Origin: a virus
Strand: one strand, 5' to 3'
Length of the DNA: 64,000 bases
Virus record (IMG/VR): IMGVR_UViG_3300042904_000405
Coordinates: 1-64,000 of that record
Program-made: the position numbers and the translations under genes
Part shown: positions 15,655 to 48,452 of the stretch, one piece after another
Numbering within the stretch: position 1 is the stretch's first letter
Layout: each line of letters opens with the position of its first letter
Notes under the pieces: model-generated
What the model saw: only the letters and a program-made list of their open reading frames with translations
Told to the model about the DNA's origin: nothing
The model's database searches: none

Positions 15655-15661
15655 GGATGCT

Positions 15662-15820
15662 ATGGACCGCCTCGTGATCGTCCCGGCAGCCTCGGTGGCT
15701 GACCTGTGTGACATCGTCGACCGCGTCCTGCCTCAGCTCGACGAGCGCGAGGCCGACCAGCTCCGAGGCGTCACCGCTTCGATGCTGTCGGTCGCCGTCT
15801 TCGAGCCGGCGCCTGCGTGA
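15662..15820 (+). CDS. Small hypothetical protein
   Basis: MDRLVIVPAASVADLCDIVDRVLPQL..; good codon bias; promoter upstream. Confidence 0.55.
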   Translation: MDRLVIVPAASVADLCDIVDRVLPQLDEREADQLRGVTASMLSVAVFEPAPA

Positions 15821-15908
15821 AATGACACGCCCGGCGCTCGGGAATAGTGAGCCCGACACACGGCCGAGATCGTCGCCCTGATTGGAGCGGGACGGCGGCA
15901 GGCGCTGG

Positions 15909-16673
15909 CTAGAGCTTCCAGTACCGCTGGTGCAGCCGCGCCGTCAGGTGCGGGGTCTGCGGGAAGCTCGCCGTCGGCAGGCCCGAGCGGATCGCCCTGA
16001 ACCACCGGATCATCGTGTCGCCGGGCGAGTAGGCATCGATGGCTACCCGGGTGAAGGCGCCGTTGGCCCGATCCCCGAACCACGCGTCGTAGCTGTACTC
16101 GCGGTCCGAGCACCCGGAGATGAGCGTCGCCGGCACCCTCGACGCCTTCGGCTGCACCCAGCCGCGCGACATCGTGACGAGCGGGTCGCTGCCGATCAGC
16201 TCAATCGGCGACATGAACCGGGCGCGGATCGGTGGCAGGGATCCACCGAACCCCAGCCCAGCGACCCGAGACACCGAGCCCGAGTGGCAGCTGTCCGACA
16301 GGAACGTGCGCCGCACGCCAGTGGCGGCCGAGTCGAACGCTGTCGCCAGCTCGTCGTCGGTGATGTACCGACGGGTGTAGTCGGACGGGCACAGCACCTC
16401 GTCGAACCCGTCGATCTCGTCGCCGTTCCGATCCGGGACGAACGACCCGTGCCCCGAGTAGGTGAACACGAACCGGTCACCCCAGCGCATCCCGTCCAGG
16501 CCGTCGCGCAGGGCGGTGAGGATCGCATCCCCGCTCGGCTCGATTGAGATCGTCGGCTCGTAGCCCAGCTCGGCGAACATGGCCGCCCAGTCGTAGGCGT
16601 CATTGACGCAGCCGGCCAGCTCGGCCGACGTCCCCGGATAGTTCAGCCCGACGTGCAGTGAGCGCTTCAGCAT
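15909..16673 (-). CDS. Caspase-family (peptidase C14, metacaspase-like) protease
   Basis: VGLNYPG...LAGCVNDA, FTYSGHGS (catalytic His), LSDSCHSGS (catalytic Cys), GAFT. Confidence 0.92.
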   Translation of the reverse strand: MLKRSLHVGLNYPGTSAELAGCVNDAYDWAAMFAELGYEPTISIEPSGDAILTALRDGLDGMRWGDRFVFTYSGHGSFVPDRNGDEIDGFDEVLCPSDYTRRYITDDELATAFDSAATGVRRTFLSDSCHSGSVSRVAGLGFGGSLPPIRARFMSPIELIGSDPLVTMSRGWVQPKASRVPATLISGCSDREYSYDAWFGDRANGAFTRVAIDAYSPGDTMIRWFRAIRSGLPTASFPQTPHLTARLHQRYWKL

Positions 16674-18909: not shown

Positions 18910-19341
18910 ATGCCGAGTGCGGTCGCCGACATCGAAGAGGTGGAGACCTTCTTCGACCTGGTGCGCAGCGGCGCCGCCGAGATGGTCGCCGCCTACTCGG
19001 TGGGCTGGACCCCGCTGAAGCTGCGCAAGCTGAAGAAGGACACCGACTTCCTCGACCTGCTCGCCGACGCGCAGGAGCACTTCCTCGACCAGGTGGAGAC
19101 CACCGTCGGACAGCGAGCCCTGGCTGGCAACCGCTGGGCCGTGGAGATGGTGCTCTACAACCGCCGCCCCGACCGCTGGCGCCCGCCGGCACACAAGATC
19201 GCCATCGAGCAGCACACCACCGTCAAGCACGAGGTGGTGCAGGCCACCGTCGAAGCAGCCAAGGAGCTGCTCCTGACCAGCGGCACCGTGGCGGCGCTGC
19301 AGCAGCGGCAGGCGATCGAAGCGCATGTCCGCGACGACTGA
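18910..19341 (+). CDS. terS: Terminase small subunit
   Basis: N-terminal HTH-like segment, helical core, LYNRRPDRWR; overlaps terL. Confidence 0.7.
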   Translation: MPSAVADIEEVETFFDLVRSGAAEMVAAYSVGWTPLKLRKLKKDTDFLDLLADAQEHFLDQVETTVGQRALAGNRWAVEMVLYNRRPDRWRPPAHKIAIEQHTTVKHEVVQATVEAAKELLLTSGTVAALQQRQAIEAHVRDD

Positions 19342-20848
19342 GTCGCTCGAGCACCTCGAGCGCATCGCCCTTCCCTCCAGCATCGGCCGGTCGCTAGCCC
19401 CTCGGCTGTGGGGAGCGGGCACCGAGTACCGCGTCGACCCGTGGCTTGCCATGGCCGAGCAGGCTGTCGTGCCAGCGTTCCTGGACAAGACCCAGGAGTC
19501 GTTCATCATGCTGAACGTCCCGCCCCAGGTCGGCAAGTCGACCTTCGGCGGCGAGCTGCTCCCGTTCTGGGTGCTCGGCATGTTCCCCGAGACGCGCATC
19601 ATCGTCATCACCTACTCGGACGACTTCAGCAAGGGCCGCGGCGCCACTGTCCGCAACATGATGGAAGCCTTCGGGCCTGAGCTGTTCGGCGTCGACGTCG
19701 ACCCCGACTTTCGCTCCGCCGGCGACTGGCGCATCAAGGGGCACCGCGGCGGGATGCTCTCGGTCGGCATCGGCTCGCAGATCACTGGCCGTTCCGGCGA
19801 CCTGATCATCATCGACGACGTCATCAAGAACGCCGAGGAGGCGGCGAGCCCGACCGCCAAGCGCAAGCACCTCGCAGAGTACGACGGCACGATCCGCACC
19901 CGCCTCCAGCCGGGCGGCATGATCCTCATCACCGCCACGCGCTGGGCCGAGGACGACCTGTCCGGCGAACTGCAGACCCGTCAGAAGGACCCCACGTACT
20001 TCGGTGATCGCTGGGAGGTGTACTCCTTCCCGGCCATCGCCGAGCCCGAGGACGAGGACGACGAGGAGTGGGTCGACCCCCTCGGCCGCGCCGAAGACGC
20101 CGAGCTGCAGTGCCGCTTCCCCGAGGGCCACTTCCACCGCGTCCGCCGCTCGATCGACGCCTTCACCTTCAGCTGCCTCTTTCAGCAGCGCCCATCCGTC
20201 CGCAAGGGGGGCATGTTCCCCAAGGCGAACTGGCGCTACTACGACCCCGACGACCGCCCGTACATGGATCAGTTCATGCGGGTGTGGGACCTCGCCGCCA
20301 CCGAGAACGGCGGCGACTACACCGTCGGGTCGAAGGTGGGCAAGACGCGCGACGGCGAGTGGTACGTGCTGGACGTCGTCCGCAAACGGCTCAACGCCAA
20401 CGACGTGCGCGAGCTGGTCTGGGCGACCGCGGTCGGCGACGGCTTCCTCACCAAGATCCGCTTGGAGGAATCACGGGACGGCGCCGGCAAGAGCGTCGTT
20501 GAGTTCTACAAGGCGGATCCGCGCTTCGCTGGGTACGACATCAAGGGCACACGCGCCGAAGGCCAGAAGGAGAGCCGGGCCACGCCCTACTCCGCACTCC
20601 AGAACGGCGGCCACTTCCACCTGCCCGACGGCGCTCCGTGGGTGAAGGACTTCGTCGACGAGCATCGACAGATGATGGGCGACGGGCGCAAGCCGCGGCA
20701 CGACGACCAGATCGACACGGTCGCCTACGCCGTGCTCGAGATGGCCGACTCCGGCCCTGTCACCATCCTCGACCCGCACGACTACACCGACCAGTTCACC
20801 GAGAAGGCCATGAACGACATCTGGCGCCGCATGGGCGTCATGCGGTGA
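19325..20848 (+). CDS. terL: Terminase large subunit
   Basis: Walker A PPQVGKST, ITGRSGDLIIIDD Walker B, TRWAEDDL, nuclease WDLA..GDYT and HDDQID. Confidence 0.95.
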   Translation: MSATTESLEHLERIALPSSIGRSLAPRLWGAGTEYRVDPWLAMAEQAVVPAFLDKTQESFIMLNVPPQVGKSTFGGELLPFWVLGMFPETRIIVITYSDDFSKGRGATVRNMMEAFGPELFGVDVDPDFRSAGDWRIKGHRGGMLSVGIGSQITGRSGDLIIIDDVIKNAEEAASPTAKRKHLAEYDGTIRTRLQPGGMILITATRWAEDDLSGELQTRQKDPTYFGDRWEVYSFPAIAEPEDEDDEEWVDPLGRAEDAELQCRFPEGHFHRVRRSIDAFTFSCLFQQRPSVRKGGMFPKANWRYYDPDDRPYMDQFMRVWDLAATENGGDYTVGSKVGKTRDGEWYVLDVVRKRLNANDVRELVWATAVGDGFLTKIRLEESRDGAGKSVVEFYKADPRFAGYDIKGTRAEGQKESRATPYSALQNGGHFHLPDGAPWVKDFVDEHRQMMGDGRKPRHDDQIDTVAYAVLEMADSGPVTILDPHDYTDQFTEKAMNDIWRRMGVMR

Positions 20849-21341: not shown

Positions 21342-21493
21342 GGGGAATCGGACGGCGGTTCGGTAGCGCAGCTCGGGTTGGGACACTGGCGCTGTTCGCC
21401 GTACGGCCAGTCCATCGTCTGATCGACCACGACCCAGCCGACACCTCCACACTCGGGGCAGTTGAACGGCGGTTCGGTAGGGCTACTCGTCAT
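21338..21493 (-). CDS. Small CxxC protein bounded by two EPP repeats
   Basis: MTSSPTEPPFNCPECGG...CPNPSCATEPPSDSP. Confidence 0.7.
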   Translation of the reverse strand: MTSSPTEPPFNCPECGGVGWVVVDQTMDWPYGEQRQCPNPSCATEPPSDSP

Positions 21494-21690
21494 CGCTGGC
21501 ACCTGCCTGTTTCGTTGCATCGGCGCTCGCCGCAACGTTCGTCGAGGAAGTCCGCCAGGGGGCAGCCGTGTTCGTGGCGGTCGCCGGGTCGCACATCGGC
21601 GGTGCATGTGGCGCATCGGTAGTGGCCGGTGAGTTTCCGCCACCAGCCCCACGCGCTATCGGACGGCGGTTCGATGCCCGGCTCAGGCAT
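21490..21690 (-). CDS. Small Cys/His protein with N-terminal EPP repeat
   Basis: MPEPGIEPPSDS...CATC...HEHGC. Confidence 0.7.
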   Translation of the reverse strand: MPEPGIEPPSDSAWGWWRKLTGHYRCATCTADVRPGDRHEHGCPLADFLDERCGERRCNETGRCQR

Positions 21691-21973
21691 CGCTCACCAT
21701 CCATTGCAGGTTCCAGACACGGTCTGTCGATGGGTCGTGATGGTCGCGAGAGCCGTCGTGGAAGTGGCGAGCGGGTAGATCGCAGGTGTAGTGCACCGCA
21801 CCTGACGTGATCCGCGCCGGGCAGACCGGCCACGTATTGCACGGACATCCCGGAGCGGGATCGAGCAGCGGGCCACCGCCGCATTCCGGGCAGGTGGACT
21901 CGGACTGGACGTGATGCGCCGCCATGTCCGGACATTGCCCGACCGGCACCCCGTGCGAGCAATCGATAGTCAT
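21683..21973 (-). CDS. Cys/His-rich small protein
   Basis: MTIDCSHG..CPECGG..CPC..C..C..H..H; SD GGAAGAGG. Confidence 0.6.
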   Translation of the reverse strand: MTIDCSHGVPVGQCPDMAAHHVQSESTCPECGGGPLLDPAPGCPCNTWPVCPARITSGAVHYTCDLPARHFHDGSRDHHDPSTDRVWNLQWMVSDA

Positions 21974-22212
21974 TCCCCGCCCTCTTCCTCGTCGGTCCCC
22001 GATCCGTTGCAGGCGGCGCAGACGCTGACAGTGAGACCCATGCGATCCCAGCAGCGGCCGAGCCCGAGGCAGTCCTGACACGGCACGGTGGCGGAGTTGA
22101 ACGGCGGTTCGGTAGCCCGTTCCCGCATCGCCTTGCGCTTGCACTCACACCCGCCCTGGAACAGGCAGTCAGGGTGGCGCTCGCACCTATTGAACGGCGG
22201 TTCGGTAGCCAT
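21970..22212 (-). CDS. Two-module Cys-rich protein with two EPP repeats
   Basis: MATEPPFNRC...ATEPPFNSATVPCQDCLGLG...CAACNGSG (DnaJ-type CxxCxGxG). Confidence 0.7.
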   Translation of the reverse strand: MATEPPFNRCERHPDCLFQGGCECKRKAMRERATEPPFNSATVPCQDCLGLGRCWDRMGLTVSVCAACNGSGTDEEEGGE

Positions 22213-22346
22213 CACAGGAGCGCCAGTCCGACCATTGTCCACCACAGTGCGAGCATGATGAAGCCCGCCAGGCAGACGGCTACGAGTAATCCGAGCGCGG
22301 CTTCGTCGTCGCTATCGGACGGCGGTTCGGCAGAGGGGTCAGGCAT
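22212..22346 (-). CDS. Small membrane protein with N-terminal EPP repeat (44 aa, not in ORF track)
   Basis: MPDPSAEPPSDSDDEAALGLLVAVCLAGFIMLALWWTMVGLALL; TGATG coupling both sides. Confidence 0.65.
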   Translation of the reverse strand: MPDPSAEPPSDSDDEAALGLLVAVCLAGFIMLALWWTMVGLALL

Positions 22347-22633
22347 CACAGACCATCCAGCCTCATGCGAGGGTCGAGCCGGCGCGGGGGCTGATTCCGC
22401 TTGAGGTAGCCGTGGAGTCGCTCGTCGAATGCCTCGTCCTCCTCAACCATGTTGAAGATGGCATCGCAGAGCTGCCATGCCTCCTCTCGGTTCTGCTCGG
22501 CGAGCTGCTCAAGGCTGAGCCCGCGCTCGCCCAGAGCCTGGAGAACGAGGGCGATCTCTGGGTCGCTGGCCCGTTCGTTGACCCAAGCGATCATCTCGCC
22601 GAGCGCGTTGCGCTCCTCGTCGATCTCGCTCAC
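22346..22633 (-). CDS. Hypothetical protein
   Basis: Coupled ORF with strong codon bias. Confidence 0.65.
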   Translation of the reverse strand: MSEIDEERNALGEMIAWVNERASDPEIALVLQALGERGLSLEQLAEQNREEAWQLCDAIFNMVEEDEAFDERLHGYLKRNQPPRRLDPRMRLDGL

Positions 22634-22878
22634 ATCGTCTCCGTCCGCGGCGTGATCACAGCCTCTCCGACACGGATCGTCCTCGACTTCTCCCGGGCGC
22701 CGGTCAGCAGACCCAGGCGGATCATCTGCTGGAGCATCGCTTGGATCGAGCCGGGGCTCTTCATGCCGATGCCCTCGGCGATCTCGCGCACCGACGGCGA
22801 GTAGCCGTGCGCGTCGATGAACGACTGCACGAACCGTTGGATCTCCGCGGCCTGCCGCGGGACGTAGTTGTCCTTCAT
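22630..22878 (-). CDS. Stand-alone LexA N-terminal winged-helix DNA-binding domain (no Ala-Gly site or S24 protease domain)
   Basis: RQAAEIQRFVQSFIDAHGYSPSVREIAEGIGMKSPGSIQAML...GLL....KSRTIRV matches the LexA DBD pattern. Confidence 0.85.
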   Translation of the reverse strand: MKDNYVPRQAAEIQRFVQSFIDAHGYSPSVREIAEGIGMKSPGSIQAMLQQMIRLGLLTGAREKSRTIRVGEAVITPRTETM

Positions 22879-25800: not shown

Positions 25801-27132
25801 CCGCCATGATCCGCGATGAAGCTGACGATGTAGCGCTGCGACCTCTCTTCAAAGTCCTTGCCTTGGTAGGTGGCGAAGATCGGCGCGCCCTCGAGCACCT
25901 CCTTCGCCACCCTCATCGCCTCGCCCTCTGGACGGAGGAATCCAGCCACCACCGGCAGCGCCATGTGGACTCGGGTCTCCCATTCGTCGTCGAACCGGCC
26001 GGCGGCCTGGATGGCGAGCATCACTGCCCGCTCAGCGCTCACGGACCACCAACGTCAGCGAGTAGCCGCCGTCGTTGAACGACAAGCCGTACTGCAGGCC
26101 GGTGATGTCGAAGCTCCGGCCCTCGCCGTCCTCAACGCGTAGGGACACGTCCTGGTCGGCAGCGTCCTCTCGCAGCGCCTGCACTAGATCTCGCACCTTC
26201 ACAACAGTCCTCCTTGCTTGATGTCCTCTGTCGCCTTCGCCCGCGAGATCTCGCACGCGGCCTTGAACTTGCCGTCGTTGCCCCAGTCGCACTCCCACTC
26301 GTAGTACAGCGGGCCGGCTTCGAAGGAGTCGGGCTCCCATGCGGACTGTGCCTCGTGGAGGCCGTCGAGTTCCTGGATCAGCTCGGTCAGGGCGGCGACC
26401 TCGGCAGGCGTGCAGAGGGCCCTGCGCTGCGGCGCTGCGAACGTGCGGAAGAACTTCTGCGCCGCCCGCTTGCACTCGGTGTCGGTGTCCTTGACGATCA
26501 CCTTGTTCCACGCGGGCGTCGTCTGCCCGAGATTCCCCCAGGCGCCGCCCGTCCTGATGTAGTACTTGTACTTGCCGACCTTCTTCGGCCGGCCGATCTT
26601 CTTATCGCCCACTCGCTTCCTCCATCAGTCCGACCTCCGGTGCTGCCAGCAGCGGTCGGAGCCCATCTCGGCGCGCCGCTTGCATTGGCGGCGCCACCAG
26701 ACTTTGCCTCGGCCGGGGCCCTCCTTGAGTCGGGGCCCTTCGAGAATCCAGGTGCACTGGTTCAGCGGCATCACTGTTCCTCACGGGAGGCGCCGATGGC
26801 GTCGGCGACGTCCGACATCAGCTCTTGGGTGTCGAGCCCGTCGCCCTCGGAGCCCCACTCTTCCCACCAGCGCACGCACTCAGCGTCGCTCAGGCCGCGG
26901 AAGACGATGAACCCGTTGCGGTTGATCACGTTCGGCATCAGTCCACCATCCTCGTGAGGGCCCGATTGAGGGCGTTGCGCAAGTCCTTGACCTTGCGCTT
27001 CGAGAGCTTCCCAGCGCCCTCGTCGGGCAGAGAAGACAGGAACAGCACGTCGAGATGGTCAGGGTCGAGGCCGACCCAGACCTGCCCTTCGGTGATCTCG
27101 TCATCCCAGATGGTCTCGTTGACTACCCACAT
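22875..27132 (-). other. Run of ~14 coupled small early genes (22875-23114, 23111-23374, 23371-23580 C2H2-like, 23577-23918, 23915-24418, 24415-24585, 24585-24773, 24773-25069, 25066-25347, 25347-26042, 26032-26202, 26199-26612, 26625-26771, 26771-26938, 26938-27132)
   Basis: Head-to-tail ORFs joined mostly by ATGA/GTGA/TGATG overlaps; no recognisable domains. Confidence 0.65.
24773..25069 (-). CDS. Lipoprotein
   Basis: MKRPLLLPVALLAACGG lipobox. Confidence 0.7.
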   Translation of the reverse strand: MKRPLLLPVALLAACGGDDGGAYYVDESPPVDEPPGPQVGVRATVGGGWITITDPETERTFRCLSGYDNSGYSAAGGPFLWCYEPAPPRINVSVGELD

Positions 27133-27608
27133 CACCAGCTCCACCTCTCCACATGTCGGGCCGCCTCGATGGCGGCGTCGGTTGGCTTCCACACCGTGGC
27201 CTGCTGGCCGTAGCGCGTCGCCCGGGTCTTGCCCGAGTCTTCGATCCAGCCCTGGTCCCGCAGGTCGGTGACCCGCGGCGACACTGACTGGTGCGATCGG
27301 CTGAGCCGCTGCTCGATGGCGTCCGTCGTGAGCCCGATCGATCCCTGCTGGTAGGCGAGGAGGATCTGAGCGAACACCCGACCCACCACCCGGTGGGCGC
27401 TCTTGCTCATGTACTGCGCCGCCGCCTCCGAGGTGGCGAGCGGCAGTGAGATCGTGCGGGTTGCGGTGGCTGGCTCCAGGTCGAGCGCCTTCAGCCTCGT
27501 CACGGCAGCTTCGAGCTTGGCGACTCGACTCCAGAAGCCGAACACCGTCGGCTCTAGGAGTACGGCTGCTTCGATGACGGCGCGTTCCGCTGTCCGTCTC
27601 TTCGTCAT
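27132..27608 (-). CDS. Winged helix-turn-helix DNA-binding protein
   Basis: GLTTDAIEQRLSRSHQSVSPRVTDLRDQGWIEDSG..R.TRYG..ATVW; SD GGAAGGA. Confidence 0.8.
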   Translation of the reverse strand: MTKRRTAERAVIEAAVLLEPTVFGFWSRVAKLEAAVTRLKALDLEPATATRTISLPLATSEAAAQYMSKSAHRVVGRVFAQILLAYQQGSIGLTTDAIEQRLSRSHQSVSPRVTDLRDQGWIEDSGKTRATRYGQQATVWKPTDAAIEAARHVERWSW

Positions 27609-35500: not shown

Positions 35501-37349
35501 ACGGGAAGCTGCTGTGCGGGCTGAACCACTCAATCTCGGAGCCGCGCCGGCGGAACCCGCACAGAGCGTCCCACTGCTGTAGCGGGATGTCGTTGAGATG
35601 CGGGTCCGTCGATGCGAGCAGGCGGGCGGCGCCGACGGAGCGCACCACATGGCTGATCGTCTGGTCGTTGACGAACTGGGCGTAGTACTCCCGGTGGACG
35701 GCCATCGTGTCGCCGCCAGCGCGGAAGACCTCGCCGCTGCGTTCCATGTACTGGGCTCGGGTGATCATTGCGGCTCCCCTCGGGCGATGGAGCCATCGTT
35801 GAGTTCGACGATGGTCAGGTCGTCGACGGCCTCGTCCCAGCGGCCGGTGACGTTCCACTGGACCCAGACCCAGCCGTCAAGCGGGTGGGGCTCGTCCAGG
35901 ACGTAGCCGTGCTGTGGGCTCTCGCCCTGGCTGCGGACGAGGATGTCAGCGGCGATCGGTTGCCTGCACCGGGCGAACCAGTTCCCCATGAACGGGATGG
36001 CCACGTGGTGCGGCGCGTCGCCGTGGCACTCGGCGCAGTACTCGTGCTCGAACTGCTCCTGGAGCCAGGTGGCTCCGGGGATGTTGAGGTTGCTCATCCC
36101 TCACCCCAGTTCTGCGAGACGTCCCGCGGGCCGACACGCTGAGTGCCGCCGCACCGGGGACCGAAGTCGACGTGGAGCCACTTGCGGCCCACCTTGACGA
36201 TGCGGCCGTAGTCGATCACCCCGAACTTGCCGGGGTTGAACGCCTGGACGTTGTCGCCGACCTTGAAGTCGGCGATGGTGAAGCTGTCGATCATGATCCC
36301 TCCGGGGTGAACTGGCGCCACCACCGCGGGATGGTGGCGTAGCCGTCGGTGTCGGACTCGGCGTCGCGGTGCTCGTTCTCGTCCAGGTGGACCCGGCGGT
36401 CGAGCATGTCCCGCAGGAGCACGGCGCCGGCGATGGCCTCGCCGTATCGGTCGCTGTCGAAGATGTTGCCGTACAGCTCGGCCAGCTCCTGGTAGTGGAC
36501 CGGCCAATCCGGTCGGAAGAAGAGCGGCGGCATGGCGAGTACGCGGTGCAAGGCCTCTACGACGGCGACTGGGAGTGCGTCACCACTGGCCCAGTCGCCG
36601 ATCAGGTCCGGCAGTTCGAGGAGCGTCGCGCCCCGATCGCTGATCCGGTACATGGGGTTGGTATCGGCTCGTTCGGCGTCGACGGCGACTTTCATGACCG
36701 CCTTGTCGTGCCCGAGGCGGTCGGACAGGTCGTTCACGACCGCCCAGCCGGCGATGCAGCACGCCGTGCCGCAGACGTCCAGGTGGAGCGACTCGGAGTC
36801 GTAGCCCGGATCGACGAACGAGGCCATCTCGAATCGTTCGGGCTGGCGGAGGATCTGGGTGATGATCCGCTCGGTGTTGGCGACGTGCATGTCAGTGGAC
36901 CTCCCTGTCCCTGTACCAGTCGGACGGCTCGTTGAGCGTCGGCGCGCGACGGATCTCAACGGCCATCCAGACGATGAAGACGAGGACCGCCACGCCGCAC
37001 AGGATCGCCACCGTGGCGGCGATCCAGTGCCAGGACGTGTAGGCGATCACGCGTCGACGTCGACGGGCTTCGGCGCCTTCTCGGGGGTCGCCTCAAGCGG
37101 ATCGCCGGTGACGGCCTCGTGGAGGTCGGACAGGCGCTGCTGCTCGACGCGGGCGTCGAGGATGCTGCGGACGCGGTAGGCGTCGTAGGTGTTGCCGGTC
37201 TCGGCGACGCGGGCCTCATCCTCGGCCGCGGCCTCGGCGAGGTTCTTCTCCGCCTGCCACTGCTTGTCGAGGTGGGCGTCGGAGATCACCTTCGCGACGT
37301 CGTTGATCTGCTTCAGGGTCAGGTCGACCGGGAACTTGCGGGTTGCCAT
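32555..37349 (-). other. Run of small early genes (32555-33145, 33157-33468, 33468-34061, 34107-34379, 34379-34555, 34555-34794, 34796-35014, 35011-35400, 35397-35768, 35765-36097, 36094-36294, 36291-36890, 37047-37349)
   Basis: Coupled ORFs with SD sequences; 33468-34061 has the widespread phage MGLDMYL..YWRKANAIH.WF..GFFFG..YQSSW pattern. Confidence 0.7.
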
Positions 37350-37386
37350 GACTGTGCCTCCTAGGCGTCAGGTTTCCGTCGGGTAA

Positions 37387-37437
37387 CGGAACAGGCCCAC
37401 CCGCCCGGAGGGAGGCGTGGCGGGTAGGCCTGTTCCG
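37387..37437. promoter_or_regulatory. Long intergenic RNA hairpin (terminator or RNase III-type processing site)
   Basis: CGGAACAGGCC-C-ACCCGCC...GGCGGGT-A-GGCCTGTTCCG. Confidence 0.6.
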
Positions 37438-37474
37438 CCACCCCACTGGGGGATGGCGAGGGGGGTGGGGGGGG

Positions 37475-37978
37475 TCAGGGCATGGTGAGGGCCTCCTCGA
37501 GGAGCGCGCGGTCGCCGGGGCCGAACCAGCCCGGACGATCGGTCCAGAAGCCGCATTCCGACAGGACGCCGGGCTGCGAGCAGTCGGAGTGGACGGACCC
37601 GTTCCAGGTCGGCCACTCCATGACGATGTGGGCGATCTCGTGCTGCCACACGAACACCTCACGGGAGTGGGGGTCGGTGGGGTCGTAGAAGATGATCTTC
37701 GACCCCACGATCCCGGACGCCGCCACATGGTCGGTGCAGTCCCAGGAGGAGCACACCGGGGTCAGGGCGACGAAGGTGATGTCGGGGGCCGGCCCATTGC
37801 GAAGCAGCTCGTATCCGGCCATCTCGTTCCACGGCGCGAACACCGCGGCGTCGTCGACCCCCGGGATGTCCCCCACCACGTAGGTCGTACGCGGTGGGGG
37901 GCCCGGGGGGGATGGGGGGATCTGCTGGAGGGCGCACCCGGCCAGCGGCAGGGCGGCGAGAGCGGCGAGGCGCTTCAC
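37475..37978 (-). CDS. Lipoprotein with HExxH zincin motif
   Basis: MKRLAALAALPLAGC; VWQHEIAHIV; D..LL Met-turn-like end. Confidence 0.7.
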   Translation of the reverse strand: MKRLAALAALPLAGCALQQIPPSPPGPPPRTTYVVGDIPGVDDAAVFAPWNEMAGYELLRNGPAPDITFVALTPVCSSWDCTDHVAASGIVGSKIIFYDPTDPHSREVFVWQHEIAHIVMEWPTWNGSVHSDCSQPGVLSECGFWTDRPGWFGPGDRALLEEALTMP

Positions 37979-38109
37979 GCGGGCCGCTCCAGGAGGAGGG
38001 GGCCCGCGGCGAGCCAGTAGACGTCGGGGTCGTCCCACCACAGCTCCGGGTCGTCGGTGACGTGGTAGGTCCCGGCGAACCGGGGGAGCAGGTCATCCCG
38101 CTCTTGCAT
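37975..38109 (-). CDS. First small gene of leftward arm (44 aa)
   Basis: SD GGAGG; MQERDDLLPRFAGTYHVTDDPELWW; GTGA coupling. Confidence 0.5.
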   Translation of the reverse strand: MQERDDLLPRFAGTYHVTDDPELWWDDPDVYWLAAGPLLLERPA

Positions 38110-38176
38110 CAGGAGCCTCCGTTCCTGTCCCGAGACAGCCCCCGGAGAGCACGCCCTAGAGCGTCCCTCCGTTCAC

Positions 38177-38220
38177 TGCCTCTCACAATGTCATCGACCG
38201 TAGACCGGTCGATTCGTCAC
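38177..38220. repeat. Imperfect direct repeat copy 1 (TGCCTCTCACwATGT-N10-AGACCGGTCkATyyGTCAC), possibly a leftward promoter
   Basis: Second copy at 38612-38655 with identical spacing. Confidence 0.7.
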
Positions 38221-38360
38221 ACCCCCCTGGGGTGGGGGGAGGGGGCCGGGCCGGCGGGTAGGGCTGTTTCTAGCCCCCGGCGGGCCGGGCGTATGTCGAT
38301 TTCCTGCCCCCCCTAGGGGGGAGGGGGGTGGGGGGTGGCCCCCCCTGGGAGCCCCCCGCA
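38221..38360. other. Poly-G/poly-C tract region with CCCCCCTAGGGGGG palindrome; G-quadruplex-forming potential
   Basis: Multiple G4-G6 runs separated by 1-5 nt. Confidence 0.7.
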
Positions 38361-38370
38361 CACTCGCCGG

Positions 38371-38534
38371 CGAACCCCTGTTCGGGAACGTCTGTTCGAC
38401 GAACCCCTGTTCGGGTACACGCGTTCGGGTACGGGTGTTCGACGATCGAGTGTTCGGTCGCCGGGCAAACCCATGTTCGTACGATCGAGTGTTCGATCGC
38501 CGGGGGATCAAGCGTTCGTACGATCGTTCGTTCG
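38371..38534. promoter_or_regulatory. Tandem array of ten LexA (Gram-positive SOS/Cheo) box-like sites
   Basis: 14-mers at 38371, 38385, 38400, 38414, 38428, 38443, 38466, 38482, 38505, 38521; two perfect CGAAC-N4-GTTCG, all with invariant GTTCG. Confidence 0.8.
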
Positions 38535-38538
38535 ATTA

Positions 38539-38614
38539 GCAAGCGATGCCCCATCGCTCCATCGCTCCGTGCGATCGCTCGCACGCTCCGATGCTCCGAT
38601 GCCCCATCGCTTGC
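38539..38614. repeat. CATCGC/GCTCC-rich block bounded by 10-bp inverted repeat
   Basis: GCAAGCGATG (38539) ... CATCGCTTGC (38605); CGATGCCCCATCGCT occurs twice. Confidence 0.65.
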
Positions 38615-38655
38615 CTCTCACTATGTGGACGCGGGCAGACCGGTCTATCTGTCAC
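38612..38655. repeat. Imperfect direct repeat copy 2
   Basis: Matches 38177-38220. Confidence 0.7.
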
Positions 38656-38727
38656 GGGGACCGTACGGTTGTGCTAGCTTCCCCGTTGGGCGCACCACGC
38701 GTCCCACTCACAACGGAGGGTACGAAC

Positions 38728-39900
38728 ATGACGAACGAACATTGGCAAGCCATCGATGACGACACATGGCAGGAAGCGCACGGGGAAGCTGTCGACCAGC
38801 TCGCACCCCTGGCCATGTGGGCGCACTTGGCAGGGATGGTCCACGGGGATGTGTCCGCGGAGCGTGCCTATCACGCGGGGATGAAGACAGGGCAGGAAGC
38901 GCCACGCGGCATGGCACCCGCGCCAGACCCCTACGAAGGGGTCCGGCACGACGTCCATAGCAAGCGTTCCAACAGTGGGCGCACCGCTAAGCGCGTCACC
39001 CGCGCGGGACGGACCTACGTCATCGGCGCGGACCCTTTCCGCGAGCACGGGGACCCCGTCCGTATCGACGGAATCACACTCACGGCGATCGCCGACGCAT
39101 GGCACGCGATCCACGGGGGAGAGCATGAGTGCACGTGCGATGACCTCACGGAAGATCGACCGATCTACCGGAAGGGACGCATGGTCATCCGCAACGGGGA
39201 ACCCGTGACGCGCACGGTCGCTCTGCGCGCTTGCCACTGCGACCCCTTCCCCCGTCTCGCGGGGACCGACTTGCGAGCGTTCGCGGAGGTCACCCCGGAG
39301 ATTCGTGATACGTCCTACGTGACACCTAGTGCGACGCATCGCACATCGCTCGCGGGTGGTCTCGTGAACGATCGGGAGACGGTCGCACGGACCATCCGCG
39401 GACGTCGCGGCGATGGCACTCCCTACGTCATGACGGAACACGGGGAGTACGGGGATGCAATCACCGATCGGAGCGTGCCGACGATCGACACTGCCTCTCA
39501 CGTGACACGGACTCGCCTCTCCATGCGCCCGCGGAAGAGTGACCCTACGGAGTCCACGGTCGACGGAGTAACAGCACTGCTCGCACCCGCGGCAGACCGC
39601 GAGCACGTATGGCACGGGCACCGTTTGGTCCCCCGTGCGGGCGCGGTCAAGTCGGGCAGTGACACCCGCAAGCGTCGCAACGCTGCCACCCGCGCCGCGG
39701 CCCCATGGTCCCCGTTCGTCCCTGCCATCGCCGCGGCCATCGGAGGGACCGACCCCGTAGTGGTGAACGGAGTAACAGTGCGACTCACGATCCCCGGAGA
39801 CACGGGCAGATTCCGCGCCCACTTGACCTACTGCGACGGATCAACCGCGACCATCCAAGCCCGCACGGCCGACCGCGTCGCACGGGCAGTCGACGCATGA
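38728..39900 (+). CDS. Orphan 390-aa protein downstream of the SOS-box array
   Basis: SD ACGGAGGG then MTNEHWQ; long open frame; HECTC...CHC; followed by hairpin. Confidence 0.7.
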   Translation: MTNEHWQAIDDDTWQEAHGEAVDQLAPLAMWAHLAGMVHGDVSAERAYHAGMKTGQEAPRGMAPAPDPYEGVRHDVHSKRSNSGRTAKRVTRAGRTYVIGADPFREHGDPVRIDGITLTAIADAWHAIHGGEHECTCDDLTEDRPIYRKGRMVIRNGEPVTRTVALRACHCDPFPRLAGTDLRAFAEVTPEIRDTSYVTPSATHRTSLAGGLVNDRETVARTIRGRRGDGTPYVMTEHGEYGDAITDRSVPTIDTASHVTRTRLSMRPRKSDPTESTVDGVTALLAPAADREHVWHGHRLVPRAGAVKSGSDTRKRRNAATRAAAPWSPFVPAIAAAIGGTDPVVVNGVTVRLTIPGDTGRFRAHLTYCDGSTATIQARTADRVARAVDA

Positions 39901-39920
39901 CGTAGACCACGCGCCGCTGT

Positions 39921-39959
39921 ACCCCGCGCCCGATCGACTTTCTGTCACGGGCGCGGGGT
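39921..39959 (+). terminator. GC-rich hairpin
   Basis: ACCCCGCGCCCG...CGGGCGCGGGGT after stop codon. Confidence 0.6.
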
Positions 39960-40174
39960 CGCGTCACGGTCCTGCTCGATGCCAACTCGGACCGAATCGA
40001 GATCGAGCCGGCCACCAGGGGGCGCGCGTCATCCCATCTGCCCTGCGTACTGCCACATAGCATGTGTCCTACCTGGTCCTTCGTGTACCTGCAGGGTCCT
40101 GGCTACCGTGTCGCCCCAGGGCCGTGCGGAGCGAAGAAAGCCCAGGGTCTCTGCTCCCCTCGAGAGCTTCTTCT

Positions 40175-40250
40175 TGGGGGCGGGGTGGGCCGGGAAGGGC
40201 CGTGGGGAGGGGAGGGGTGCAATGCGAGGGAGGGGGTTGGTTAGGGAGAA
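40175..40250 (+). other. G-rich tract (G-quadruplex potential)
   Basis: More than ten G3-G5 runs in 75 nt, intergenic. Confidence 0.65.
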
Positions 40251-40290
40251 AAGAAGGATGGTTTGGTGAGAATGTGGTACTTTGGTCTAC

Positions 40291-40482
40291 ATGAATGAAC
40301 CACAGGAGAAGAAGGCTTGGGGGAGGCCGGTGAAGGATCCTTCGGGGCCGGCGAGGAACATGGGGATCTCCCTGGCGCCGAGGCATCAGGAGATCCTCAT
40401 CCGGGAGGCGGAAGCTCGGGGGATCAGTCGGTCGGAGCTGGTGGCGAGGCTCCTCGATCGGCTCGTGGGGGTGAAGAAGTGA
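40291..40482 (+). CDS. Ribbon-helix-helix (CopG-like) DNA-binding protein
   Basis: GRP..MGISLAP....L..EAEARGISRSELVARLL; TACTTT-7nt-ATG. Confidence 0.8.
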   Translation: MNEPQEKKAWGRPVKDPSGPARNMGISLAPRHQEILIREAEARGISRSELVARLLDRLVGVKK

Positions 40483-41939
40483 GCGGCGTGGCGTACATGG
40501 CACGGAACCGGGAGACGGCGGACAAGGTGACGGAGATCCTCGAGCTGCCAGAGGGCAGGTGGGTCGACGTCAGGGTCGAGCTGGAGACCGACGAGCCGGC
40601 GGTGGCCGTCGTCAGGCTGCTGCTCTCCTCCGCTCAGCTCCACGCCCTCGTCGACGCCTGCACGGAGGTGGTGTGATGGATGACTACATCGTCGTGACGA
40701 CCCCCGTGCCGAACCCGGACTACGACCCGAACGCCACCTGGCCGTCAGTGAACCTGCAGGAGGAGGTGTTGGCCTTCCAGATCTGTGTGCTCACAGGCGC
40801 AGGGTGGTACACGCCTCTCGCCATGGAACCTCTCCCGTACAGCCAGCTCGGCCTCGCCCTCCACATCGTCAAGGCGCTCAACGCCTACGCCGAACCGACC
40901 ACCGAGGAGGAGGGGTCATGAGGGTCATCCTGGCGGTGACCTCCCTCGTGATCATCTTCGTGACCTCGAGGGACGACTGGTTCTGGCAGGGACTCGCGGC
41001 GATCGCCGCCGCGGTGCTGGCCTTCACGGCTGACTCCCCTGTCGACGCAGGGATCTGGGGGATCGTGGCGGGGCTCGGGGCCTGCGACGCCCTGCTCGCG
41101 CTGGAAGGGCACCGGCTCAGGCGGGTGCGACGGATGCGGCACCTGCGGACCGGGCTGGAGCGCCGGGGGCGGTAGGCATTGCGCAGCTGACTCTCGTGGC
41201 GTACGATGAGGGTCGGACATAGCATACGAAAGGCCACTCCATGGACGAAGAGATCTACAACGAGGCGACGGCGGAGTTCTACTGCGCAATCGCCCTCCAG
41301 ACGGGCAGGTGCGCCGAGCTGCTCAACGGGCTCGCCAACGGCGGGGCGGTGACGCTCGACGTGAGCACCACCCCGCCGGGCTTCGCCTTCATCTCGGCCG
41401 AGCAGGTCGCACAGCTGGCGGAGGGTCTGTGATGGCCCTCGAAGAACTGCAGAGGCTGTTCCCGATCGGGACGCGGTGGATGATGACGGCGAACGACCGG
41501 ACACGTGAAGCCACGGTCGTCGGCTACGAGGCGGATCCGGTCGACGGCTGGGTGTGGGTCGTGGTCCGCAGCGCCGAAAACCTCGGGGCCTTCCACTATG
41601 AGTCGAACGTCTGGGACAGGATCGCCGAACCGACACCGTGCCCAATCGTCGAGGCCGAGAGGTTCCGCATCGTGGAGGATCCCGAGGCGAGTCCGTACCG
41701 GACGCTGTCGCGGGGCCTCAACGGGACCCCGATCACCCTCCACCCGGCCGACGCCAACCTCGCCTCGCTCGGCTCGTGGGCGCCGTACACGTGGGAGAAC
41801 CGGTGATCTGGTACCTCATCCGCTGGCTGGTCTCCCTGGCGTTCCGCCGGATCGGGTTCATCGACGACGTCGACGTGGAGGTGACGCGGTGATCTGGAGG
41901 GTCATCAGGTGGCTCAAGCGAAACCTGGCGACGTGGTGA
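40479..41939 (+). other. Run of small genes (40479-40676, 40676-40921, 40918-41175 membrane, 41241-41432, 41432-41806 and two tiny MIW.. ORFs to 41939)
   Basis: Coupled start/stop overlaps. Confidence 0.6.
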
Positions 41940-42457
41940 CGCGCCCCTACCGGGTGCTGTTCTGCGGCAGCCGCAACTGGTCGGCCCCTGAGCCGATCCG
42001 CATCAAGCTGGAGGGGATCCTGGAGAAGCATCCCAACGTTGAGCTGGTCCACGGCGCTGGCCGCGGCGCCGACATGATCGCCGGCGCGGTCGCTGAGTCC
42101 CTCGGCGTGCCGGTCCACGCCTTCCCAGCCGACTGGGACGGAGAAGGGCTCGGCGCGGGGCCGTTGCGCAACCAGCGCATGCTCGACTTCGGCGTCGACG
42201 CCATCTACGCCTTCAAGGAGGGCTTCATCCGCACGATGGACAGAGGCGGGACCGAGGACATGGTCAGACGGGGCTTGGAGGCCGGGGTGCCGGCTCAGAT
42301 CATCGACACGGTCACCGTCACGACGGGGACGATCATCCACCAGGCCATCGGGCGCAACAGCGAGGGCATGACGACGAGCTGTGGCCTCGAGCGCCAGCAC
42401 TACTCGACGTGCTCGGGCTTCGCCTCCATGGTGACGTGCGAGGAGTGCCTGACATGA
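41936..42457 (+). CDS. SLOG/YspA-like (DUF2493) protein
   Basis: RVLFCGSRNW, VHGAGRGAD, FPADW, AGPLRNQRML, GGTEDM. Confidence 0.85.
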   Translation: MTRPYRVLFCGSRNWSAPEPIRIKLEGILEKHPNVELVHGAGRGADMIAGAVAESLGVPVHAFPADWDGEGLGAGPLRNQRMLDFGVDAIYAFKEGFIRTMDRGGTEDMVRRGLEAGVPAQIIDTVTVTTGTIIHQAIGRNSEGMTTSCGLERQHYSTCSGFASMVTCEECLT

Positions 42458-45371: not shown

Positions 45372-45465
45372 TCGGCGATCGTATACGACGCCGCCTAGCA
45401 TGTCCAGCGAACGAGCGTTCGCCGGCGGTGGACAAAGCTGCTATGCCACCTCTACGGTGGCTGCT

Positions 45466-45627
45466 ATGAGCGAGGCCAGCGAGAACTCCCGCCCGGGCAA
45501 GGAGGGCAAGATCCAGTCCTTCTACGTGCGCCACGAGATCCTGGCCAAGCTCGGCGCCCTAGCCAAGGAGCGCGGCGTCAGCCGCAACCGCATGCTGACT
45601 GTGCTCGTCGAGGAAGCCGATCAGTAG
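45466..45627 (+). CDS. Ribbon-helix-helix DNA-binding protein
   Basis: SFYVRHEILAKLGALAKERGVSRNRML; TACGGT-7nt-ATG. Confidence 0.75.
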   Translation: MSEASENSRPGKEGKIQSFYVRHEILAKLGALAKERGVSRNRMLTVLVEEADQ

Positions 45628-46555: not shown

Positions 46556-47568
46556 CGGTCACCACCTTCCATGTTCCGTCCGGGCTGACCCGCACGATGG
46601 TGTAGCTCTGAGCGAACAGCGATGTGCGCGCCGTCTCGGGGTCGTTCGCTCCCCACCACAAGCGGCCGTCGCGATCAACCACGTAGAACATGTCGGCGAC
46701 CTGTTTCGGCGGTTCGGTAGCGGGGTCAGGCATTGGCGATCGCCGCCCTCAGAGCGTGGACGAGTGACGAACCCTCGCCCGTGCTCACTACGCCGCGCTT
46801 GTCCCCAATCACCACCGCGGTTCCGTGAGTCGTGATGGCGTGCGGTATCCGCACCGTCGCTCCGCTGCCGAGCACGACGTCGAGTAGATCGTCAGTTGTG
46901 AGCAGGTCGGCACAGTCTGGACAGAGCGCGAACCTCAGAGGGATGAGGTCCGAGCAGCGGCAGGGGCTATCGGACGGCGGTTCGTTAGCTGGTGCTGGCA
47001 TAGCCGTCCATCCATCGCTCGGCGATTCGGTAGCAAGGGTCCAGACAGAAGTGCCAGACCTGTACGTCATCGGCGCACCATCCCATGTCGGCCAATGGTC
47101 GGCGCGTGCCGCAGATGGCGCAGATGAACGGCGGTTCGATGGCAGGCGCAGGCGGCGGACTGCTCGGCCACGGCGGGCACTTGCTCACGTCGGTCCGCGG
47201 GTTGCTAGCCATCGGCCGATTCTTCGCACGGGCGACAGATGCCGTCAATCAGTTGCTCCCGCGACTCGCAACGCTCACAGACACCGCTGCGGCCCTCGCG
47301 GAAGTAGCGACGAGTGTTTGGTGGGAGGTGGGCGAGGGGGTCGCTATTGAACGGCGGTTCGTTAGTCACGGTCGGCCTCCAGCCATCGCCCGATGGCTGG
47401 GAGTCCGACTCGGACGACGGGCTCATCGGTGTCGAGCACGGCTCGCGCCTCGTCGCTGATGGACGGCGGTTCAGACGCCTGATCGCACGGCCACGGTTCG
47501 CCGCACGTCGCACATCGGACGATGGTCGCCGGGCGATGGCGATTGAACGGCGGTTCATCAGCGGGCAC
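46548..47568 (-). other. Five small EPP-motif genes (46548-46733, 46726-47001, 46985-47211, 47205-47369, 47362-47568), four with CxxC
   Basis: MPDPATEPPK, MPAPANEPPSDS, ..AIEPPFIC, MTNEPPFNS, MPADEPPFN..ASEPPSIS. Confidence 0.7.
46703..47557. repeat. EPP-repeat cluster 2: six sites at 46703 (degenerate), 46971, 47125, 47348, 47460, 47544
   Basis: Same CGGCGGTTC core, orientation and reading frame as cluster 1. Confidence 0.92.
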
Positions 47569-48059: not shown

Positions 48060-48452
48060 ATGTACCCGTTCAAGATCTACGAGTGCGCCTACTGCGGCGA
48101 TGAGGCCACCGAGAACGATCACGTCACGCCCCGCTCGCGCGGCGGCAGACTGACCGTCCCATCTTGCGCCCCTTGCAACCGGTCCAAGTCCCGCAAGGAC
48201 GCCGACGAATGGCTGGCGCATCAGCTGATCCGCGACGCCCGCTGCGATATCGGTGACGATGCGAGCCGCCGTCTGGTGGAGATGTTGCTCCGCCTCCCGG
48301 CCCTCGTCGACGCTGGGATCATCGACATGGGCTGCGTCGGCGTCGAGCTGGCGTCGGCGCGAGAGGAGGCGCTCCAGCTGGCGCTCAACCTCGAGCTGGC
48401 GCTGACGACCCTCAACGCTGCCGTTGAGAATGCTCGGGCGCTGGCCTCATGA
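48060..48452 (+). CDS. HNH endonuclease
   Basis: CAYCG..ENDHVTPRSRGG...VPSCAPCNRSK. Confidence 0.9.
   Translation: MYPFKIYECAYCGDEATENDHVTPRSRGGRLTVPSCAPCNRSKSRKDADEWLAHQLIRDARCDIGDDASRRLVEMLLRLPALVDAGIIDMGCVGVELASAREEALQLALNLELALTTLNAAVENARALAS

Follow-up and report, generated by a model that had tools for sequence, protein, structure and literature searches.

A tandem array of ten LexA-box-like sites in a divergent gap of an actinophage-like genome, and the possible involvement of host LexA

The stretch of DNA considered here, called the window below, comprises bases 1–64000 of the 72,403-bp virus record IMGVR_UViG_3300042904_000405, the first 18 bases of which are repeated at its end, so that the assembly is circularly closed. 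Its GC content is 65–69% throughout. Within a 618-bp non-coding gap (38110–38727), bounded by the ATG codons of two divergently transcribed genes, the first gene of a leftward arm and P0001, lies a tight run of ten short sites which resemble the operator of LexA, and through which the phage probably reads or soaks up the LexA of its host. The gene calls used throughout are our own and the promoter positions are guesses; 113 open reading frames (ORFs) were called from GC content at third codon positions (GC3) and P0001 was added by hand, giving 114 for the window’s genome, denoted G000. By these calls the array stretch itself is non-coding.

38371–38534, plus strand: array of ten 14-bp LexA-box-like units, SGWWC-N4-GTTCG, 164 bases

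The units begin at 38371, 38385, 38400, 38414, 38428, 38443, 38466, 38482, 38505 and 38521, all on the plus strand, and are separated by 0, 1, 0, 0, 1, 9, 2, 9 and 2 nucleotides (nt), that is, by steps of 14, 15, 14, 14, 15, 23, 16, 23 and 16. Their right half is GTTCG in ten of ten cases and their left halves read, in order, CGAAC, GGAAC, CGAAC, GGTAC, GGTAC, CGATC, CAAAC, CGATC, GGATC and CGATC; re-reading of the sequence gave exactly the units, gaps and half-sites that had been listed in the original prediction, which was made from the letters of the window alone. Measured against CGAAC-N4-GTTCG, the successive units carry 0, 1, 0, 2, 2, 1, 1, 1, 2 and 1 mismatches, all in the left half; two units (38371 and 38400) are perfect palindromes, and the other eight comprise five with a single mismatch and three with two. 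A search of both strands of the window with the pattern SRWWCNNNNGTTCG returned 20 matches, compared to 2.23 expected from 100 shuffles (standard deviation 1.45, largest 6), and 13 of these 20 fall inside 38371–38534, made up of the ten units, one overlapping match (38517) and the two perfect palindromes counted again on the other strand.

Conserved arms around variable spacers had been taken in the original prediction as a sign of selection and not of slippage. That the arms are kept while the spacers vary is borne out, with eight distinct N4 sequences among ten units and a pyrimidine as the last spacer base in all ten, but the exclusion of slippage has to be qualified, as a 39-nt block is duplicated at 38442 and 38481 (79% identity) and 35-nt blocks are repeated at 38380 and 38423. 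Part of the array has grown by local duplication, which accounts for the uniform polarity of its units. A reading of the array as RNA hairpins was discarded, because the right half stays GTTCG whatever the left half becomes, so that no substitution is matched by a compensating one; an Rfam scan of 37000–41000 gave nothing near the gathering score.

The LexA consensus is CGAAC(n)4GTTCG in Bacillus subtilis (PMC4551915) and TCGAAC(N4)GTTCGA in Mycobacterium tuberculosis, where four boxes occupy the gap between lexA and Rv2719c (PMC3381160). For Streptomyces venezuelae, chromatin immunoprecipitation sequencing (ChIP-seq) gave the motif tCGAAC-N4-GNNCGa, described as an imperfect palindrome in a report whose table includes boxes with a degenerate second half that were validated by surface plasmon resonance (PMC9380542). 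Read on the minus strand, the units of the window are CGAAC-N4-GWWCS, and the S. venezuelae motif leaves open precisely the two positions at which they vary most. The core of a LexA operator, a palindrome in which one half may be weak, is found in all of them, with 0–2 mismatches confined to one half. Their identity as LexA-type operators, put forward in the original prediction, is therefore supported by agreement with the M. tuberculosis and B. subtilis consensus, by the fit to the S. venezuelae motif and by the perfect boxes of related phages described below. A further perfect box lies some 7 kb to the right, at what appears to be a classical operator position, which suggests that the phage uses such boxes conventionally too.

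45408–45421: solitary perfect box CGAACGAGCGTTCG; divergent gap of 94 bp; −10-like TAGCAT (45396–45401) ending 6 nt before the box
45466–45627, plus strand: gene of 53 amino acids (aa) downstream of this box, ribbon-helix-helix-like by eye

A second repeat family, TAT-YGRAC-GGCG-GTTCG-GTAG, is present in ten copies, all on the plus strand, in two clusters (21349–22329 and 46703–47361) which sit inside small leftward genes. On the minus strand it reads CGAAC-CGCC-GTYCR, one mismatch from a LexA box; unlike in the array, its spacer and flanks are invariant, and none was seen in the relatives G001–G003 introduced below. The first cluster ends 17 bp from a 95-aa ORF (22346–22633) that precedes a gene for a truncated LexA, to which we return.

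A scan of IMG/VR for three consecutive units returned 75 loci, and an array was counted as genuine where it had three or more boxes carrying no more than one mismatch, with two or more different spacers. By this definition 21 of the loci are genuine arrays, spanning GC contents of 0.45–0.69, 46 are trivial short-period repeats and eight fall short. Relatives of the window phage, all of them metagenomic records and two of them fragments, account for four of the genuine arrays; they are G001, G002, G003 and the fragment G013. In G001 (70,248 bp, 100% complete) 26 of the 114 G000 proteins are matched at 22–56% identity and in conserved order, and G002, G003 and G013 have the terminase, the portal and a few other genes in common with the window genome; portal and terminase identities across the relatives are 38–51%. 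The array occupies the same divergent gap in G001, G002 and G003, and while the genes beside it are not homologous between the window and the relatives, the array itself is conserved. G002, G003 and G013 contain 4, 4 and 6 boxes, every one of the 14 being a perfect CGAAC-N4-GTTCG with differing spacers and mostly 15-bp steps, and G001 contains six units of which two are perfect (an overlap artefact at 68574 was dropped). A search for equivalent arrays in related phages, which the original prediction had proposed as a check, was thus answered by arrays at the same syntenic position in three relatives, and its concern that homologous arrays might conserve only GTTCG is removed by the 14 perfect palindromes. 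With the palindromic left arm conserved in its homologues, the array of the window appears to be a decayed copy.

The array units of L014, L042, L048 and L068 (IMG/VR, GC 0.46–0.53) are of the form CGTAC-N4-GTTCG. This one-sided change from A to T in the weak half is found also in some units of the window and of G001, and suggests that the CGTAC form is a recurrent variant and not random decay. In G002 (locus L082, about 15660–15860) the four perfect boxes are followed by about six DnaA-box-like sites (TTGTCCACA, TCATCCACA, TTGTGGATAA and others) and then by a tandem repeat tract of the GTCGTCGAC type; runs of DnaA boxes also adjoin the arrays of the unrelated L008, L015 and L064.

As to what might bind these sites, the window encodes one obvious candidate, a protein which the original prediction had named for binding tests and which is a LexA DNA-binding domain and nothing more.

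22630–22878, minus strand: 82-aa protein with a LexA DNA-binding domain only (PF01726, E 3.4e-12, residues 8–67)

It aligns to the N-terminal domains of LexA proteins over residues 6–70, ending at the linker, and is 34% identical to that domain of an actinobacterial LexA (L096); the S24 cleavage domain (PF00717) was found nowhere in G000–G003. A search for homologues of similar length with the 82-aa protein as query gave at least four proteins. Homologues with PF01726 lie at the syntenic place in G002 and G003, and these are the only two carriers among the 15 other array-bearing records: G001 and G013 lack the domain, as do all 11 unrelated records, and in G001, which is complete and has an array, no such protein appeared even with a profile built from the phage copies. 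The three phage domains are 29–35% identical depending on the method and differ through the recognition helix (KSPGSIQAM, LSPNTGHAL and SSKSSTQPI), yet their arrays share one half-site; after the winged helix, a C-terminal tail (..AG/V-M/I..TE..) is conserved in all phage copies. The only non-structural protein common to G000–G003 is a MarR-like winged helix protein (27132–27503), and this is absent from ten of ten other array records. Since no phage-encoded binder is common to the array-bearing records, host LexA, which is conserved from host to host, would be the likelier and more economical common binder.

The array is one part of a structured module of about 480 bp, which combines flanking direct repeats, G/C runs, the array and an imperfect palindrome. 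The module and the two genes that flank it are laid out as follows.

37975–38109, minus strand: first gene of the leftward arm, 44 aa, with GGAGG 8 nt before the ATG
38177–38220, plus strand: left copy of a 44-nt direct repeat (CTCTCACAATGT-N10-AGACCGGTC...GTCAC) that brackets the module
38222–38349, left of the array: G/C-run block containing short palindromes such as CCCCCCTAGGGGGG
38539–38614, directly right of the array: imperfect 76-bp palindrome of CCATCGCT / GCTCCGAT 8-mer repeats
38612–38655, plus strand: right copy of the 44-nt direct repeat, 75% identical to the left copy, spacing 435
38728–39900, plus strand: P0001, first gene of the rightward arm, 390 aa, with GGAGG 7 nt before the ATG

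The arms of the 76-bp palindrome are 36 nt long and 75% complementary, around a 4-nt centre. A G/C-run block lies on the same side of the array in G001, G002 and G003 as in the window, and the G001 array is flanked by an analogous pair of direct repeats (CCCTCACCNTGTC..ACCCCGTGG). For P0001 we found no Pfam or PHROG match, no relative in IMG/VR, no homologue in the related phages and no usable match in the Atlas, where its model has a predicted local distance difference test (pLDDT) score of 0.40; in a variant contig from the run X3, 16 of its 21 differences fall at third codon positions (hand count), which indicates that P0001 is a genuine gene. An 11-nt inverted repeat without mismatches (CATGTTCGTAC / GTACGAACATG) at 38472–38482 and 38720–38730 connects unit 7 of the array with the P0001 start codon, and the first codons of this gene contain two more CGAAC half-sites. 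Outside the array, TANNNT hexamers occur in the gap only at 38675 (TG-extended) and 38664 on the plus strand and at 38202 and 38665 on the minus strand, the one at 38202 being a −10-like TACGGT within the left copy of the 44-nt repeat; two TACGAT hexamers (38480 and 38519) lie within the array.

The wider genome is organised in three arms.

From about 50.2 kb, across the end of the record, as far as 20.8 kb, rightward: structural arm, including the portal, a tape-measure-sized ORF and the large terminase
38109 down to 22346, minus strand: leftward arm, from the gene calls
From 38728, plus strand: rightward arm, from the gene calls
19325–20848: large terminase gene, at the far end of the structural arm, adjoining the convergence with the leftward arm
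48060–48452: HNH endonuclease gene, about 2 kb upstream of the portal

The portal protein matches those of Mycobacterium, Gordonia and Microbacterium phages at 23–26% identity and a GP88 domain is encoded in the genome; with a GC content of 67%, these features make the genome actinophage-like and suggest an actinobacterial host. Comparison with INPHARED at the DNA level gave no match for 2 kb around the array, for the first 20 kb or for the array itself at E values up to 1. Contigs with the array stretch come from soil metagenomes of several studies, and there were no RNA runs among those listed. Those from X1, which may be the source of the record, and from X2, an independent soil metagenome run, are identical to the stretch, and the X4 contig has a single difference at 38427, at a depth of 3, which may be an error. 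Another contig of run X3 (1.3 kb, soil) matches 38423–38464 only and then continues with different GTTCG units up to a loose end (...CATGTTCGACGCGCCTATGTTCG); it appears to come from another, unsampled relative with an array of its own. A stand-alone gene for a caspase-family (C14) peptidase lies at 15909–16673, on the opposite strand within the structural arm, and a YspA/SLOG-family protein is encoded at 41933–42457 in the rightward early arm.

Genes for an integrase, a resolvase, an S24 peptidase, ParB or a ParA-type ATPase were found in none of the four genomes G000–G003. That neither an integrase nor a CI-type repressor was found would fit a possible lysogeny as an extrachromosomal prophage, on the model of the Bacillus thuringiensis phage GIL01, but is not in itself a sign of a lysogenic state. 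A polymerase, primase, helicase or recombinase was recognised in none of the 50 of 114 ORFs that were scanned, the unscanned ones outside the structural arm all being shorter than 100 aa; to this extent the earlier remark that the phage has no polymerase or recombinase of its own holds.

Stacked LexA boxes are also found in a host chromosome. In L096, from an uncultured member of the Actinomycetota, three perfect boxes 1 nt apart and a partial fourth (2260–2356) lie between a LysM-like gene with an nrdR-like neighbour (both assigned by eye) and a lexA gene whose product matches LexA structures with an E value of 5e-52, so hosts do stack such boxes. Across 185,579 species genomes there are 11 loci with three perfect boxes in succession; by eye, at least four of these (L092, L095, L098 and L099) are perfect tandem repeats, five are loci of Spirochaetota with three boxes, and L091 looks like a phage contig. 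Counts of perfect 14-bp boxes in 61 sampled Actinomycetota genomes range from 0 to 29 per genome with a median of 7, against a reversed-pattern control that gave mostly 0–6 and up to 16; the sample takes in the unpublished G017, G034 and G064, without which median and range are the same.

The reading we tentatively place first, while giving it somewhat less than an even chance, is that the array consists of host LexA operators which block a central control module, perhaps an origin, until SOS cleavage or a rising phage copy number lifts the block, the truncated phage LexA being a second player. In an undamaged cell, several LexA dimers bound at the boxes would create a nucleoprotein block, repressive or occluding, over the control, and possibly origin, region. 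The block would lift when SOS cleaves LexA, or when accumulating phage genomes outnumber it. The 82-aa LexA domain, which lacks the means to be cleaved, would be a second member of the family in the same circuit, as gp6 is in GIL01, and would not be the main occupant of the array. Host LexA binding, its repressive effect and the role of the 82-aa protein are all inferred from sequence. We favour this reading because of the motif match, the conservation of the array in relatives, the lack of a shared phage binder, the conventional box at 45408, the stacking in L096 and the precedents of GIL01 and phi29.

Several observations weigh against it. Only two of the ten window units are perfect, and three have two mismatches within the GAAC core of one half. 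For a 14-bp box the authors of the GIL01 work expect a footprint of 18–20 bp (PMC4551915/PMC6182141), so that neighbours 14–16 bp apart may not all be occupied at once. The best −10 candidates, which face the flanking genes, are 140–170 bp from the array and the gene starts 190–260 bp from it, which weakens the earlier suggestion that LexA on the array silences the divergent early arms; a scan of 37900–38900 with the sigma-70 consensus found no promoter, and a terminator consensus scan was likewise empty. A similar array in L024 precedes a consensus promoter, TTGACG-N17-TACTGT, by about 45 nt, which is not a repressor position. A latent state held by LexA would have to manage without visible maintenance genes in G000–G003, and the putative assignment to an actinobacterial host draws on the 23–26% portal matches, GP88 and the 67% GC. 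Stacking of perfect boxes 1 nt apart as a common habit of hosts was also discarded, as two such boxes were found in one of 201 sampled Actinomycetota genomes, this one being L096, the genome we started from.

Two other readings retain LexA, or a relative of it, as the binder, and both seem to us unlikely, to a similar degree. The boxes might drain host LexA from its few operators as phage genomes multiply, with tens of copies bearing 4–10 strong sites each, and so switch on the SOS regulon (RecA, repair and synthesis, division arrest), in which case the array would be a protein-free device for host takeover, and in G002-like relatives the replication initiator would be drawn off likewise by the adjoining DnaA boxes. 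The distance of the array from promoter candidates and a number of sites beyond any regulatory need would suit such a sponge, as would the four to six perfect boxes packed into 60–200 bp in G002, G003 and G013, which approach the content of a whole host genome, the DnaA-box-like clusters beside the arrays of G002, L008, L015 and L064, which could be a second sink for a host factor, and the dearth of replication and recombination genes among the ORFs scanned; decoy arrays do work in synthetic systems (PMC3322331, PMC7826281). A single infecting genome, however, cannot titrate LexA before it has replicated, and selection for titration should keep the sites perfect, whereas only two of ten are so in the window and two of six in G001. 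A pure sink also has no need of one fixed position in the early control gap, which the array holds across four related genomes, and the literature searched describes neither such arrays nor a natural phage LexA decoy. The alternative that the boxes are private operators of the phage’s own truncated LexA (22630–22878), acting as an early-region regulator insensitive to RecA, draws on the presence of a protein with PF01726 only, encoded in syntenic positions of G000, G002 and G003, three out of four related genomes, on its alignment to LexA without an S24 domain, with 34% identity to the actinobacterial domain, and on the conserved C-terminal tail, which could mediate pairing; a monomer, too, would be well served by one fixed GTTCG half and a loose partner. 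Against this stand the absence of the protein from the complete, array-bearing G001 and from 11 of 11 unrelated array-bearing records, and the differing recognition helices of three phage proteins whose arrays share a half-site; the truncated LexA homologue of GIL01, moreover, binds a distinct site of its own and not the dinBoxes (PMC6182141).

The remaining readings do without LexA altogether. We consider it distinctly improbable that the sites are iteron-like elements of a replication origin, bound by an initiator and only incidentally similar to LexA boxes. The lambda origin provides an example of tandem palindromic iterons, the array belongs to a structured 480-bp non-coding module between diverging early arms, cumulative GC skew across the window is lowest at about 34–36 kb, and DnaA-box-like sites accompany the arrays of G002 (about six, with a tandem repeat tract), L008, L015 and L064. 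In the window itself, DnaA-box matches with a single mismatch number 5 against 8.3 expected, with none near the array, no AT-rich stretch adjoins it (GC at least 0.57) and the period of 14–16 bp is not helical. No initiator, helicase or primase gene was recognised among the ORFs scanned, and neither of the genes beside the array matches a family or is conserved in the relatives, so that there is no adjacent initiator that co-varies with it; phage-specific iterons would also be expected to differ, whereas the same pair of half-sites, ten bases in all, recurs in unrelated phages without a common candidate binder. Very improbable, in our estimate, is a neutral slippage repeat or a terminase recognition site, even though parts of the array are recent local duplications and 46 of the 75 IMG/VR pattern matches are trivial short-period repeats. 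The arms have been kept while the spacers differ (eight N4 sequences in ten units), and the array is conserved across genomes whose proteins are 22–56% identical, at the same spot in three of them. The large terminase gene is 17.5 kb from the array, and 13 kb in G002, which is not the position of a pac or cos site and makes the terminase alternative raised in the original prediction unlikely; from the positions of the terminase gene (19325–20848) and the HNH gene (48060–48452), the packaging end is probably near 21 kb or 48–49 kb and not at the array.

If LexA does bind, the array would represent either a new coupling of a lytic programme to the DNA-damage state of the host or a natural transcription-factor sponge, and both possibilities are relevant to the means by which a cell is taken over by phages with hardly any regulators of their own. 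Should the sponge prove true, stacked arrays of host operators would be a general strategy of gene-poor actinophages, by which the cell is reprogrammed without a regulator being encoded.

To our knowledge, the use of host LexA by phages has been known only in the form of one or two boxes at a temperate phage promoter. The closest known system is that of GIL01, a tectivirus of Bacillus thuringiensis, in which host LexA acts with gp7 at dinBoxes and gp6 is a truncated LexA homologue (PMC4551915, PMC6182141). CGAAC-N4-GTTCG boxes in phage control regions and a phage-encoded LexA DNA-binding domain standing alone are common to both. As GIL01 is described there, however, each promoter has one or two boxes, which either lie at the start site or a little beyond it (dinBox1/1b) or are spaced by two helical turns (dinBox2/3), as opposed to ten abutting boxes in the window and four to six in its relatives, 140–330 bp from gene starts. 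There gp6 binds its own site and activates a late promoter, whereas any role of the 82-aa protein of the window is conjectural, and the two phages differ in virus type, genome size and host phylum. The SOS operators of actinobacterial hosts have the same core and the same tolerance of a weak second half, and divergent control regions with several boxes exist among them, but as far as the sources used describe them these hold one to four boxes per region that overlap promoters, compared to ten in the window, off the promoter candidates.

A parallel in logic is offered by the Spo0A sites of phi29 and the CtrA sites of phages of Alphaproteobacteria, discussed under the term ‘lytic deferment’ (PMC9437464), where several sites for a global regulator of the host lie in early control regions of phages without lysogeny genes, so that the phage programme follows the state of the host. 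The regulator is a different one, the sites as described there are promoter-associated and dispersed and not set in a tight tandem array, and, since healthy cells contain LexA, the logic of the Spo0A case would be inverted. Temperate phages such as 186 (tum), CTX and SPC32H place antirepressor or lytic genes under LexA control (cited in PMC9437464) and so use host LexA as a sensor of DNA damage; the 45408 box before a small regulator gene looks to be of this kind. In that account they have one box per target promoter, with a repressor and integration genes of their own, of which none were found in the window genome. Transcription-factor decoy arrays (PMC7826281, PMC3322331) resemble the array in being tandem binding sites that need no neighbouring gene, the difference being that those described are engineered or eukaryotic, in Escherichia coli and yeast. 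Co-option of host LexA by a phage, including a truncated LexA homologue in GIL01, is thus already established in the reports cited; what appears to be new, in phages in which no lysogeny genes were found, is the tight array of 4–10 boxes, its placement off recognisable promoters and its recurrence in several phage lineages.

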